In this document: positions 2,157 through 7,189 of the stretch, piece by piece
How positions within the stretch are numbered: position 1 is the stretch's first letter
How the letters are laid out: the number at the start of each line of letters is the position of its first letter
From: an uncultured Chloroflexia bacterium
Lineage (GTDB): Bacteria; Chloroflexota; Anaerolineae; Anaerolineales; UBA4823
Reading direction: 5' to 3'
Length of the DNA: 64,000 nucleotides
Assembly: GCA_963705155.1 (NCBI GenBank)
Contig: CAVPJC010000001.1
Location: 292,392 to 356,391, forward strand
Position numbers and translations under genes: made by a program
The notes under the pieces: generated by a model
What the model was told of the DNA's origin: nothing
Seen by the model: the letters and a program-made list of their open reading frames with translations, nothing else
Databases searched by the model: none

Positions 2157-2480
2157 TTAGATGTACGGCCCAAATTTCGCCACCAGCCGGTCTTTGGGCT
2201 GGTACCCGCTCACCCGCTGGCTTACTTCTCCGTGCACGAACAACATTAGGGTAGGCACCCCCATTACCTGGTACTGCATTGCCAGGTCCGGGTTGTGGTC
2301 CACATCCAACTTAACCACTTTCACTTTACCAATCCAGTCAGCAGCAAGCTGCTTGACCACCGGGTCCAGCATCCTGCAGGGACCGCACCAGACTGCAGTG
2401 AAATCCACCAGCACAGGCTGTTGTGATTCCAGCACTTCACGCTGGAAGGTATCTTCGCTGACATAAACGGTTTCGGCCAT
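2157..2480 (-). CDS. trxA: Thioredoxin
   Basis: 107 aa with the WCGPC active site and a typical thioredoxin length and sequence (VLVDFTAVWCGPCRML...). Confidence 0.92.
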   Translation of the reverse strand: MAETVYVSEDTFQREVLESQQPVLVDFTAVWCGPCRMLDPVVKQLAADWIGKVKVVKLDVDHNPDLAMQYQVMGVPTLMLFVHGEVSQRVSGYQPKDRLVAKFGPYI

Positions 2481-2593
2481 GTGTTCTCCTGTAAAACACG
2501 CCTTTCGAGCAGCGCGGTAATCAAATCATCTGGTTTGATCTTCATGGTACCCAGTCTGGTTGGAAATGTCAAGATGACAACCGGCGATCCATC

Positions 2594-2622
2594 TTGACAG
2601 AACCCCTTTTTTGCAGATAATA
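2594..2622 (+). promoter_or_regulatory. Candidate sigma-70 promoter for the pheS leader
   Basis: TTGACA at 2594-2599, a 16-17 nt spacer, then GATAAT/ATAATA at 2616-2622. Confidence 0.35.
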
Positions 2623-2639
2623 AACGATACAACCTGATC

Positions 2640-2951
2640 ATGCAAATGCGATGATGGAGGAAAGTAAACTGGCGAAAGCCAACAGGGAGGCGGGCGCTGC
2701 AGAATGCAGCGCATCTGGGCAAAGACTGAGACCCCCGCCCGGTGGAACCCGGTTGAAGTTCCCTTCGGAGCAGCTCAAGTGAACGGGTAACAGGCGTTAC
2801 CAGCAGTAGTTTGAGCCGCAGCCTCAGCGTTAGAGGAGGAGAATTGAGCAAGTTTTCTCGATTTATCAAGCGAGCCGGCTGTGACCGGCTAACTCGGGTG
2901 GTACCGCGGGAAATTTCATCCCGTCCCAGGTGAGGGGCGGGTGTTTTTTTT
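2640..2951 (+). promoter_or_regulatory. T-box leader (tRNA-sensing riboswitch) controlling pheS-pheT
   Basis: The Stem I base resembles UGCGAUGAUGG...AAGUA (2645-2668), and a GGUGGAA distal-loop-like motif sits at 2741-2747. The canonical T-box sequence AACUCGGGUGGUACCGCGGG is at 2891-2910. A terminator hairpin and a U-run follow immediately. UUC triplets at 2759-2761 and 2764-2766 are candidate Phe specifiers, but I could not resolve which. Confidence 0.75.
2920..2951 (+). terminator. T-box attenuator/terminator hairpin
   Basis: CCCGTCCC (2920-2927) pairs with GGGGCGGG (2934-2941) and is followed by TGTTTTTTTT. The 5' arm can alternatively pair with the T-box GGGUGG segment to form the antiterminator. 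Confidence 0.75.
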
Positions 2952-2973
2952 AATGACAGATATAGGAGGATCT

Positions 2974-4034
2974 ATGTTAGATGATTTAAGCCAGATCGAA
3001 AAAGCCGCCCTGGCGGCACTGGGCAGTGTACAGGATGACGCCTCTCTGGAGGCCTGGCGTGTAGCCCACCTGGGCCGCAGTGCGCCAATCATGCAGGCTT
3101 TTGACCGGCTGGGACAACTCCCCAAAGAAGAGCGCCCTGCCATTGGGCGCCGCGCCAACGAGGTCAAGCGCGCCATCGAAGCCGCCCTGGCCGAACGCCT
3201 CGAAATCATGCGCCAGGCGACCCTGCAGCGCACCCTGCAAGCCGAGCGCCTGGATGTGACCCTGCCGGGCCGCCCCAGACCCTCGGTCGTTTGCATCCTG
3301 CCACCCGCACCCTGCGCGAGATTTGCCGCGTGTTCGGCGAGATGGGTTTCCAGGTCTACCGCTCGCCAGAGGTGGAAACCGACGAAATCAATTTCCAGCT
3401 GCTCAACTTCCCGGTGGGGCACCCGGCCCGTGAAATGCAGGATACCTATTTCGTGGAAAGCAGCCGGGCGCGCGGTGACAACCCCATTCTCATGCGCACA
3501 CACACCTCACCCGGGCAAATCCGCGCCATGCGCGAGTATTCGGCTGAAAACCCGGACAACCCACCGCCGGTGCGCCTCATCCTGCCGGGTATGTGCTTTC
3601 GCTACGAACAGATCACCATCCGCCACGAGATGCAGTTCAACCAGGTGGAAGTGTTGGCGGTGGGTGAAAAGATCACCTTTGGCGACCTCAAAGGCACCGT
3701 CAGCGAGTTTGCCCGCCGCATGTTCGGGCAAAATGTGCACACGCGCTTCCGCGCCTCATATTTCCCCTTCACCGAGCCCAGCGCCGAGGTGGATGTGGAG
3801 TGCTTCGTGTGCGGCGGCAGCGGCTGCGGCGTGTGCAAAGGCTCCGGCTGGCTCGAGATCATGGGCTGCGGTATGGTACACCCGGTGGTGCTGCAAAACG
3901 GCGGCTATGACCCTGCCCGCTACAGCGGTTTTGCCGCTGGCATGGGCCCGGAGCGCATCACCATGCTGCGCCACCGCATTGACGACATCCGCTCTTTCTG
4001 GGCGAATGATATGCGGTTTTTGGAACAGTTTTGA
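2974..4034 (+). CDS. pheS: Phenylalanine--tRNA ligase alpha subunit (frame broken once, near 3270)
   Basis: AGGAGGA lies 4 nt upstream of ATG 2974. The N-terminal part (MLDDLSQIEKAAL...LDVTLPGRP) is in frame 1. The rest (LGRLHPATRTLREI...FPFTEPSAEVDV...) is the 3291..4034 ORF frame. Adding one C to the CCCC run at about 3270 restores ...LPGRPQTLGRLHP... Confidence 0.9.
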
Positions 4035-4035
4035 A

Positions 4036-4065
4036 AGAGAATCGGGAATAGAAATTAGAGATTCG
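4036..4065 (+). repeat. Left arm of an imperfect inverted repeat flanking the four-helix-bundle gene
   Basis: AGAGAATCGGGAATAGAAATTAGAGATTCG matches the reverse complement of 4533-4562 at 23 of 30 positions (hand alignment). Confidence 0.6.
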
Positions 4066-4083
4066 TCGATAAAAAAGGCTATT

Positions 4084-4584
4084 ATGAGCATTAAAGGATT
4101 GGAAAAACTGGAAACCTGGCGGAAGGCAAAGGACTTCTCGATAAAAATTTATCGAGAAGTTGTCCCATTACTGCCGCCAGAAGAAAAATGGGGGCTGAGT
4201 CAGCAAATCCGCAGGTCAGCTGTGAGCATCCCGGCCAACATTGCTGAAGGGTACGGGCGTTTTTACTACCAGGACAATGTTCGCTTTTGCTACAATGCAC
4301 GCGGCTCACTCACAGAAACGCTCAGTCATATTTCCATTGCTTATGAGCTTGGCTTTCTTCCCGAAGCGCTTTTTACGGAATTTGAAACACAAGGCGATGA
4401 TCTGATGCGTCTGATCCATGGCTATATCGCCTATCTGAAGCGCAGCAAACAGGGAGAGTCAGACCCTGGAAACGCCCGCGCGGTTCACGATGTTGGGGAG
4501 CCTTACATCGCTGAAGAACTGGATGAAGAGCACGATTCTCTATTCTCTAATCGCGATTCTCGTTTTTCTCAGGAGATCGACTAA
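4084..4584 (+). CDS. Four-helix-bundle protein (23S rRNA intervening-sequence protein family)
   Basis: MSIKGLEKLETWRKAKDF...QIRRSAVSIPANIAEGYGRFYYQDN...ARGSLTETLSHISIA carries the family hallmark NIAEG..R...GS..E. The gene is visibly lower in GC than pheS and pheT. Its stop overlaps the pheT start (TAATG). Confidence 0.8.
   Translation: MSIKGLEKLETWRKAKDFSIKIYREVVPLLPPEEKWGLSQQIRRSAVSIPANIAEGYGRFYYQDNVRFCYNARGSLTETLSHISIAYELGFLPEALFTEFETQGDDLMRLIHGYIAYLKRSKQGESDPGNARAVHDVGEPYIAEELDEEHDSLFSNRDSRFSQEID
4533..4562 (+). repeat. Right arm of the inverted repeat flanking the four-helix-bundle gene
   Basis: CGATTCTCTATTCTCTAATCGCGATTCTCG contains two CGATTCTC copies, complementary to GAGAATCG/GAGATTCG in the left arm. 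Confidence 0.6.
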
Positions 4585-7189
4585 TGAAAATACCCCTTTC
4601 CTGGCTTAAAGATTTTGTTGATATCGACCTGCCCCTCGAAGACCTGGCCCACCAGCTCACCATGGCCGGGCTGGAGGTGGAGGAGATTCGATGCGTGGGC
4701 CTGCCGCTGCCGGGCGACAATGCAGATGGCAGTTCCGGCGGGCATGCCCGCCCCCAGACCAGGCTCTCCGGGCTGGAATGGGATCCTGCCAAGATCGTCA
4801 CGGCCTCGGTTTCGGAGGTCATGCCTCACCCCAACGCCGACCGGTTGGTTCTGTGCAAGCTCTACGATGGCGAAGGCGAGCACATCGTGCTCACCGGCGC
4901 CCCCAACCTTTACCCCTACAAGGGCCTGGGACGGCTGGATAAACCGCTCAAGGTGCCCTATGCCCGTGAAGGTGCCCGCATTTACGATGGTCACCAGCCC
5001 GGCCAGGTGCCCACGACCCTCAAGCGCACCAAAATCCGCGGGGTCGAATCCTATTCCATGATCTGCTCTGAAAAAGAGCTGGGCATATCTGAAGAACATG
5101 AAGGCGTCATCATTTTTGATGAGGATGCCCCGGTGGGCGTCCCGCTGGTGGAATACATTGGCGATGCCGTGCTGGATATTTCGATACTGCCCAACACCGC
5201 TCGCGCCGCCAGTGTGCTCGGTGTGGCCCGTGAAGTGGCTGCCATCACCGGTAAACCGCTCAAAATCCCGCCGGATTACTTCGATATGCACGCCGCCGGA
5301 GGGCAGGTGCAGGCCCGGATCGAAATTCGCAATCCGCAGCTCAACCCGCGCTTTGTCCTGGGTCTGATCCGGGATATTCACATCGGCCCCAGCCCGTATC
5401 AAATCCAGCGCCGATTGCGCCTGGCGGGCATGCGCCCGATCAACAACATCGTGGATGCCACCAACTATGCCATGCTGGAGCTGGGCGAACCACTGCATGC
5501 CTTCGATTACGATGTGCTGGTGCAGCGCGCCGCCGGGGCTGCACCCACCATCATCACCCGCACCGCCCACCCCGGCGAGCGCTTGACCACCCTGGATGGC
5601 GTGGAGCGCAGCCTGGATGAAACCACCGTGCTGGTGTGTGATACCGCCGGCCCGCTTTCCATTGCCGGCGTCATGGGCGGCGCTGAAACCGAGGTGAGCG
5701 CAAATACCCGCAGTGTGCTGCTGGAGGGCGCCTCCTGGAATTTCATCAATATTCGCAAGACGGCCCAGGCGCAGAACCTGCCCTCCGAGGCCAGCTACCG
5801 CTTCTCGCGCGGCGTCCATCCGGCTCAGGCAGAACGCGGCGTGCGCCGCGGCCTGGAACTGATGCGCCGGTGGTCAGGCGGTGAGGTGGCGCAGGGCCTG
5901 GTGGATAACTACCCCCTCCCGCCGCAGGATCCACAGGTACCAATTACTCCTGCTGAGGTAAAGCGCTTGCTGGGCATCACCCTGACGGCTGTAGAAATTG
6001 CCGCCCTGCTGCGCCGCCTTGAATTTACCGTTGAGCTGGATGGCGACACAGTGCGCGCAACCACGCCCGATCACCGGCTGGATATCGGCGTGGGCATTAC
6101 CGGCGCAGCCGACCTGGTGGAGGAGATCGCCCGCGTCTACGGATACGACAACATCCCCGCCTCCCGCCTGGCCGATGAACTCCCCCCGCAGCGCGGCAAC
6201 CCTTCGCTGGAAAGCGAAGACCGCATTCGCGACCTGCTGGTCTATCTGGGCTTCCAGGAAGTAATCAGCTACCGGCTGACCTCCCCCGAGCGGGAAGCGC
6301 GCCTGTTTCCATCCGCGGCTGTTCACGGACCTGGTGAGGCTGCTCAGGAAGATTTTGCCACCCGGGGCAGCCTTATGTGCGCCTGGCGAACCCCATCGCC
6401 AGCGACCGCGCTGTGCTGCGCCAGAGCCTGCTCTCCAGCGTGATGGAGGTGATGGAGCGCAACGCCCGCCTGCGCCAGCGCATGGCGCTCTTTGAAATCG
6501 GGCCTGTCTTCCAGCATACAGGTGAAGACGACCTGCCGCGCGAGCCGCAGCGCGTGGCTTTGCTGCTGGCAGGTCCACGCTCCGCCCCCGGCTGGCAGCC
6601 TGCCGATACGGCCCCAATGGATTTTTATGATCTGAAAGGTGTGCTTGAAGCGCTGCTGAACAGCCTGCACATCCCGGACATTCGATTCGAGCCGGGCGCT
6701 CACCCCTCCTACCACCCGGGCAAATGCGCCCGCATTCTCTCGGGCAGTCAGCTACTGGGCATCAGTGGCGAGCTGCACCCCCTGGCGCGCGCCGGTTACG
6801 ACCTGCCGGTTACTCTTGCTGCTACCCCGCTGCTGGCTGCCGAGCTGGATCTTGACGCGCTTCAAAGTCTCATCCTTATCCTGTATGATTCGCTCCCCGT
6901 GCCAGAATTCCCGCCCGTACTGGAAGATCTGGCCGTGGTGGTCGAAGAAGGCTTGCCTGCCGAGCGTGTCGAACAGGTCATCCGCGCCGCCGGCGGGAAG
7001 ACCGTCACCAGTATCCGCCTGTTCGATGTTTACCGCGGCGGACAGGTGGGCGCCGGCATGAAGAGCCTGGCTTACAGCCTCACCTACCAGGCTGCAGACC
7101 GCACCCTGACGGACAAAGAAGCCGCACAGGTGCGCCAGCGTGTCATCCGCCAGTTGGAGCAGGAGCTGGGAGCAAAATTGAGGGCCTGA
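4584..7189 (+). CDS. pheT: Phenylalanine--tRNA ligase beta subunit (two frame breaks near 6310-6370)
   Basis: MKIPLSWLKDFVDIDL... is the classic PheT N-terminus, followed by B3/4 and B5 regions. The C-terminal part continues as ORF 6377..7189 (YVRLANPIASDRAVLRQSLL...). The intermediate frame reads PRLFTDLVRLLRKILPPG, and removing one G from the GGGG run at about 6365 gives ...ILPPGQPYVRLANP. Confidence 0.9.

Follow-up and report, generated by a model that had tools for sequence, protein, structure and literature searches.

The closest described systems are the 23S rRNA intervening sequences (IVSs) of Leptospira and Coxiella, in which an open reading frame (ORF) of the family PF05635 lies within long complementary terminal arms. 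In Coxiella burnetii, the IVS of helix 45 encodes S23p (PF05635), has a 28-bp terminal stem and is cut by RNase III at the first of three GACAGAT heptamers (PMC4990558). Other reports place PF05635 genes in cas loci (PMC3936711) and within rRNA insertions of candidate phyla radiation (CPR) bacteria (PMC11270868), while dispersed heptamer arrays and convergent pairs have been described in Xanthomonas (GGGAATC) and Nostoc (GGGGATT) (PMC4692102), and heptanucleotide elements in Geobacter metallireducens (PMC2700814). The literature that we searched holds no description of PF05635 genes in operons with inverted heptamer arms. Here we analyze such a cassette—a PF05635 four-helix-bundle (4HB) gene bracketed by two complementary arms—inserted between pheS and pheT in a stretch of 64,000 nt (the window) from an uncultured Chloroflexia bacterium of the Anaerolineales (GenBank assembly GCA_963705155.1, contig CAVPJC010000001.1, positions 292,392 to 356,391). 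By analogy with the rRNA elements, we lean with modest confidence towards an old, vertically inherited IVS-type cassette in a T-box-controlled pheST transcript, whose arms would pair, leaving the 4HB cistron in a loop, into a stem that RNase III probably cuts.

The likeness to the 23S IVSs extends from the protein family and the complementary arms to the heptamers (GACAGAT three times in Coxiella, a GAGAATC-like unit four times here), the location inside a highly used transcript and the sporadic occurrence among lineages. The original prediction for this locus, made from the sequence alone, had already proposed a stem-bounded unit of this kind, and the tandem 7-8-nt complementary arms found at most sampled PF05635 genes (see below) support it together with the Coxiella parallel. 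In contrast with those elements, however, the host transcript here is the pheS-pheT mRNA operon and not 23S rRNA, purifying selection acts strongly on the protein (dN/dS, the ratio of nonsynonymous to synonymous substitution rates, about 0.1) whereas the S23p of Coxiella is in decay and probably not produced, inheritance has been mainly vertical over a long time, and RNase III excision, which has been shown for Coxiella, is presumed. An Rfam search found no rRNA match in 2400-5000, and there is no insertion in a 23S helix (25 or 45); because it is not in rRNA, the cassette is not itself a 23S IVS.

Other systems share some of these traits. The arrays of Xanthomonas, Nostoc and Geobacter are likewise intergenic, consist of about four 7-nt units and often form inverted pairs between co-directional genes, and the Xanthomonas unit GGGAATC nearly equals the GAGAATC and GGGAATA of this locus; yet no gene family is linked to them, whereas the present arrays enclose a PF05635 gene, with which they co-vary. 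In diversity-generating retroelements (DGRs), the accessory protein Avd has the same four-helix-bundle fold (template-modelling (TM) score about 0.8), belongs to the same Pfam clan and binds structured RNA in a ribonucleoprotein (RNP), but it is only about 10% identical and its genes have not been described as arm-bounded. No reverse transcriptase, template repeat or variable repeat lies beside the 4HB gene, so that the cassette is not a DGR; its neighbours are pheS and pheT, with no other partner gene nearby. Repetitive extragenic palindromes with their associated transposases (REP/REPIN-RAYT), miniature inverted-repeat transposable elements (MITEs) and repeat-framed small nuclease genes similarly combine short inverted repeats, with or without a small gene, with an intergenic location and gain or loss between relatives. 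Unlike them, the cassette encodes no HUH transposase or nuclease, but a 4HB protein devoid of a catalytic motif. Its arms also differ between copies, no target-site duplication was seen and this genome holds a single copy, not a multi-copy family, which sets it apart from a MITE or a transposon with terminal inverted repeats.

The cassette and its operon

A single ORF occupies the 549-nt gap between pheS and pheT, where GC content is 0.41-0.52 as against 0.59-0.68 in the flanks (composition scan). An inverted-repeat search delimits two arms of 33 nt each, 82% complementary and 465 nt apart. Their complementarity score is 36, against 15.9 ± 2.2 in 100 shuffles (maximum 25; z = 9.1), while random gene-sized positions of the same genome exceed z = 5 in 3 of 250 cases (1.2%). 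The long-range stem is present in both the minimum-free-energy and the centroid folds of 4020-4600, and a direct repeat in the right arm reveals its internal periodicity. The features of the locus are as follows.

4034-4066, plus strand: left arm, purine-rich, with the heptamers GAGAATC, GGGAATA, GAAATTA and GAGATTC; its first base is the last base of the pheS stop codon
4075-4078, plus strand: weak Shine-Dalgarno sequence AAGG of the 4HB gene, in the loop right after the left arm (read from the sequence)
4084-4584, plus strand: 4HB gene, 166 amino acids (PF05635, 1.4e-31; TIGR02436, 5.2e-31)
4532-4564, plus strand: right arm, the pyrimidine-rich complement of the left arm, within the 3' end of the 4HB ORF
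4571-4586, plus strand: Shine-Dalgarno sequence AGGAG (4571-4575) and start codon of pheT (read from the sequence)
2642-2931, plus strand: T-box leader (Rfam RF00230, 99.7 bits against a gathering score of 93, E = 3.6e-22, full model)
2974-4034, plus strand: pheS (PF01409, 5.6e-87 for 3291-4031; TGA stop at 4032-4034)
4584-7189, plus strand: pheT (B3_4, B5, tRNA_bind and tRNA_synthFbeta domains; ATG at 4584)

These data bear out the layout that the original prediction had drawn, namely a lower-GC segment with a four-helix-bundle ORF (ORF, domain and GC data), inverted repeats of about 30 nt matching at 23 of 30 positions (in fact slightly longer and better), and a right arm inside the 3' end of the ORF with the ribosome-binding site and start of pheT directly behind it. 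The two genes overlap as TAATG, the 4HB stop codon TAA (4582-4584) sharing a base with the pheT ATG (4584-4586). Upstream, the T-box leader, followed by a terminator-like hairpin plus U-run at 2920-2951, makes pheS, the 4HB gene and pheT one regulated unit; read from the sequence, the 4HB gene thus sits within a transcript controlled by tRNA charging and is co-transcribed with pheS and pheT.

The product is clearly a member of PF05635, scoring 109.2 bits (cut-off 33.8), and 107.1 bits (cut-off 24) with TIGR02436. Both membership motifs, R-x3-S-x3-N-x2-E and G-S-x2-E, are present (the family motif being GxxRxxxSxxxNxxE; PMC3936711), and the hallmark residues R44, S48, N52, E55 (of IAEG), S75 and E78 are invariant or nearly so across orthologue alignments, with G74 conserved. 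A monomer model built with AlphaFold (AF2) from 30 orthologues shows helices at residues 10-25, 38-56, 62-88 and 94-121, with a predicted local distance difference test (pLDDT) score above 90 for residues 10-121 and below 50 for 123-161. The protein accordingly divides into a core (1-122) and an acidic tail (123-166) that is predicted to be disordered, the right arm encoding its last 17 residues or so. The model has the four-helix-bundle fold of Xcc0516 (2gsc) and BT_0352 (2rld): these are the best Foldseek matches (TM 0.93 with a root-mean-square deviation of 1.4 Å, and TM 0.88), followed by Avd (4dwl, 8ub7), and phmmer relates the protein to 2gsc at 2e-15. The solved homologues 2gsc, 2rld and 4dwl are pentamers. 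Members of the pheS-pheT clade carry a C-terminal motif, KxSKQGxNEPGA...RE...Y, ahead of the acidic tail (4450-4581 in the window), which most family members do not have. Among orthologues dN/dS is 0.05-0.14, with dS often saturated; by this codon comparison, the protein is under strong purifying selection. Homology to Avd makes structured nucleic acid, possibly the stem of its own cassette, its most likely ligand.

Within the coding region (residues 17-26), a perfect 13-bp palindrome, ACTTCTCGATAAA-TT-TTTATCGAGAAGT, lies at 4133-4160; the G021 orthologue does not contain it.

Conservation, loss and spread of the cassette

Among 61 related genomes, the closest homologues are again found between pheS and pheT (G021, G006, G029, G035, G051 and G049), and a scan of public genomes returned 33 close homologues, all but two of them labelled Anaerolineales or Chloroflexota. 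Both pheS and pheT were on the fetched stretch in 22 of the 33, and in all of these a purine-rich tandem array precedes the ORF and the complementary array follows it; altogether, the arm-bracketed order pheS-4HB-pheT occurs at about 30 orthologous loci of Anaerolineales genomes. One filled locus (L078) stands in a record labelled Anaerolinea thermophila. The unit differs among lineages—GAGAATC here, GAGATTC in G021, AGAGART in the main clade, AATCAGG in G006, G029, G035 and G051, and AAGGTTGA in G049—and at each orthologous site it is paired with its own complement. The fourth pair from the loop, for instance, is C-G in L063, L071 and L078, and T-A in L075 and L081. Relatives that carried the gene without flanking complementarity had been named in advance as evidence against a stem-bounded unit; the relatives carry both.

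The geometry of the junction is conserved as well. Arm 1 starts 0-19 nt from the pheS stop and is followed by the Shine-Dalgarno sequence (AAGGAG or GGAG in relatives, where this genome has AAGG at 4075-4078) and the 4HB start. The 4HB stop lies about 12 nt within arm 2, whose first unit encodes the final three residues of the protein (T-A/T-L) plus the stop in relatives, and arm 2 ends 10-24 nt ahead of the pheT ATG, which leaves the intervening Shine-Dalgarno sequence (GGAG) free. Paired arms put the pheS stop about 15-30 nt from the pheT start, similar to the spacing at empty sites, and the corresponding value here, about 20 nt, fits the earlier proposal that the stem brings the 3' end of pheS beside the 5' end of pheT.

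The phylogenies of the 4HB protein and of pheS plus pheT have clades in common, and their pairwise identities are correlated (Spearman 0.78). Tree agreement, identity correlation and dN/dS together indicate that the cassette is old and has been inherited with its host locus through the diversification of Anaerolineales, its protein being kept. Most relatives, nevertheless, have a pheS-pheT spacer of -1 to 21 nt and no cassette, so that the empty sites for which the original prediction had suggested looking do exist. Presence and absence mapped on the host tree require at least nine changes, of which well-supported branches dictate six. Most clear-cut is G050 (L046), which is empty within an otherwise filled, well-supported clade of 16 members, and whose spacer TAG-AAGGTGTCATC-ATG equals the flank of its sister minus arms and ORF. 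The aligned sites show several losses of the cassette as one piece (arms plus ORF), each restoring a normal spacer of 10-15 nt. ORF-less hairpins stand at the site in G005 (90 nt) and G039 (111 nt), the nearest sampled relative of each having an intact cassette whose unit is identical or very similar, and G004 has a solo left-type array.

Movement is seen in copies with AGAGART-type arms at other sites, which nest in the pheS-pheT clade (approximately unbiased (AU) test against an exclusive pheS-pheT clade, p = 0.044): upstream of a dehydrogenase-like gene of 715 amino acids, between mscL and a UvrD-like helicase gene, between a NeuB-like gene and another gene, and in a hydrogenase operon. As read from the trees, these cases show that the arms accompanied the cassette when it was copied to further gene junctions. 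The cassette of G049 belongs to another 4HB subfamily, and a single clade of all pheS-pheT copies is rejected (p = 0.0005), which implies that the junction was colonised at least twice. The suggestion that the cassette is mobile holds therefore on an evolutionary scale, given the clean losses, the copies elsewhere and the second colonisation, but not for a recent insertion at this locus, whose single, old copy is vertically inherited and under purifying selection. Since close paralogues occupy unrelated junctions and a different 4HB subfamily occupies pheS-pheT in G049, a specific link to the function of phenylalanyl-tRNA synthetase (PheRS) is rejected.

The arms are a property of the gene family and not of the pheS-pheT site. 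Among 27 PF05635 loci of relatives for which both flanks were available, arms were found at z > 5 in 20 and at z > 3 in 23, and they occur at about half of the 13 PF05635 loci of two Bacteroidota genomes. In an arm-swap test, an arm scores 39.7 with its own partner and 17.7 ± 6.1 with the arms of other loci; the own partner ranks best of 28 in 20 loci, the exceptions being close relatives with a common unit, and paralogous cassettes within one genome have differing units. On the coding strand, purines predominate in the upstream arm of 23 of 26 loci, and G exceeds C there in 23 of 27. These results show that the arms are real. A close 4HB paralogue, L113 (G460:C17:25444-25893), runs apparently in frame into a downstream ORF (open from 1501 to 2937 of the locus); it lacks detectable arms.

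The genome studied here, which is 85% complete, holds no PF05635 gene other than this one, so that the further four-helix-bundle genes with similar flanks envisaged by the original prediction do not occur in it. Further copies of the arms, also envisaged there, are present: ORF-less hairpins of GAGAATC/GAGATTC-like units lie on contig C18 (191752-191822 and 239690-239780), and solo arrays at C18:96790-96825 and C7:55240-55270. They were found by a relaxed periodicity scan plus blastn-short; a strict periodicity scan recovered hardly anything owing to the degeneracy of the arms, and a low-threshold Tandem Repeats Finder (TRF) run on the whole genome gave mostly noise. The same genome also contains genes of an unrelated family, GxxExxY (PF13366, a PD-(D/E)XK-like nuclease fold), framed by inverted tandem arrays of the same design as around the 4HB gene (z of 17, 24, 7.8 and 5.5), with units of 7-8 nt (CGCAAAGG, TTCGTGT, CACCAAG and ACAGATG). 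Two of the four loci are frameshifted or decayed.

G000:C17:35070-35610: GxxExxY locus
G000:C12:227830-228530: GxxExxY locus
G000:C22:6654-7082: GxxExxY locus
G000:C12:14300-14730: GxxExxY locus

Possible roles of the arms

In the mechanism towards which we lean, pairing of the arms in the pheST mRNA would give a duplex of roughly 30 bp, with the 4HB cistron looped out. About 20 nt would then separate the pheS stop from the pheT start, which would preserve the native geometry of the operon. RNase III, whose gene is present in this genome, would probably cut the duplex as it does in 23S rRNA IVSs, releasing the 4HB message and leaving separate pheS and pheT messages, while at the DNA level the inverted arms would make the cassette prone to precise deletion. 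Several results weigh against this mechanism. A stem selected in sense RNA normally gives an excess of G:U-compatible mismatches, and across 46 loci we counted 75 G:U-type and 93 A:C-type mismatches, that is, no G:U excess. The stem is imperfect, at 82% complementarity, and its tandem-heptamer build exceeds what a simple stem requirement explains. None of 40 sampled 4HB loci of the lineage lies in an rRNA gene (Rfam), so that the connection with true IVSs comes from other phyla and from the literature. Finally, the mechanism yields no function for the 4HB protein.

A broader proposal, which we put forward tentatively and regard as doubtful, is that PF05635 genes and inverted heptamer arrays constitute one self-contained genetic system of transcribed junctions, whether rRNA helices or operon spacers. 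RNase III would cut the arm stem and leave the host transcript unharmed, the palindrome would permit precise loss and occasional copying at the DNA level, and the pentameric protein might act on its own stem (in protection, in cleavage timing or in promoting copying), which would explain a purifying selection that lasts until the cassette is lost. The GxxExxY nuclease cassettes would then be a parallel system with the same arm design.

The strongest alternative is that the arms act as DNA, forming hairpins or cruciforms at which a host or other enzyme inserts, copies or excises the cassette, or that quasi-palindrome template-switch repair keeps them complementary, the RNA stem being a by-product. 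We consider this unlikely, yet keep it as a serious rival because of the mismatch counts, the clean loss at the stem base and the arm design common to a nuclease-fold family. It would account for losses that take exactly the arms plus the ORF, for arms that accompany the ORF to new sites, and for ORF-less hairpins and solo arrays both at the site in relatives and elsewhere in this genome. However, no transposase or recombinase lies in or beside the cassette, no target-site duplication is visible when filled and empty sites are compared, the genome has one copy and inheritance is mostly vertical. Arms that differ among copies in one genome, moreover, provide no common end sequence for an enzyme to recognize, and their constant strand polarity (23 of 26 loci) together with the constant co-orientation with flanking genes points to a transcription- or translation-linked constraint.

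The heptamer arrays could also be binding sites, in RNA or DNA, of the pentameric 4HB protein, for autoregulation or for an RNP, with complementarity secondary to the presence of the unit in both orientations. Each arm has four to six phased 7-nt units and the solved homologues are pentamers, the structural homologue Avd belongs to an RNP that binds RNA (8ub7), orthologues retain the AGAGART unit despite saturation at synonymous sites (dS 0.8-1.7), and the protein core is mildly basic (net charge +2 to +3). Such a role for the arms is possible but fits poorly, and we hold it to be improbable, because close paralogues (55-60% identical, in one genome) have unrelated units and an unrelated protein family is surrounded by arms of the same design. 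The core of some family members is acidic (pI 5.3-5.8), and there are arm hairpins with no gene, this genome having several hairpins and arrays for its single 4HB gene.

The idea that the repeat is a fortuitous or low-complexity similarity, or a common terminator or REP-like hairpin that has nothing to do with the gene, is contradicted by the comparative data and has a negligible probability: the imperfect arms, the simple purine- or pyrimidine-rich units and the U-run after the right arm in this genome would suit it, but z is 9.1 here while 1.2% of random positions exceed z = 5, the same bracket recurs with its own unit at the orthologous loci and at most paralogues, a 465-nt separation is unlike terminator geometry, and the U-run is not conserved in relatives, for which reason the right arm is rejected as an intrinsic terminator.

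Should the IVS-type mechanism hold, the intervening sequences of rRNA would be just one setting of a much wider class of stem-bounded cassettes, with ordinary operons as another. PF05635—a very large family of unknown role, related to the Avd of DGRs—would gain a function-linked context and a tie to the excess of heptamer repeats that has long been noticed in bacterial genomes and lacks an explanation. It would also represent a way of placing an extra cistron between two tightly coupled essential genes without disturbance. The pheS-pheT lineage lends itself well to tests, as its orthologous sites include many that are filled, are empty or hold only a hairpin.

Frame changes and other observations

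Three genes of the assembly are each split between two frames. In pheS, a 1-base indel falls in a C-run near 3267-3277, the PheS of a relative giving two tblastn high-scoring segment pairs in different frames that join at 3267-3276. In pheT, an indel near 6361-6443 yields the overlapping ORFs 4584-6443 and 6377-7189, with a C/G run at the change. The RNase III gene (G000:C13:527383-527767) is likewise in two frames. Because all three are essential, these splits are most likely assembly indel errors and do not mark pseudogenes; further ORFs of the genome may carry similar errors.

A PADLOC search matched no defence system. At the pheS-pheT junction of G047 (L040), the spacer is 864 nt long and has neither a 4HB gene nor arms, but holds an unrelated insert with two small ORFs, one membrane-anchored-looking and the other with a Gly-rich segment, which suggests that this junction tolerates several kinds of insertion.

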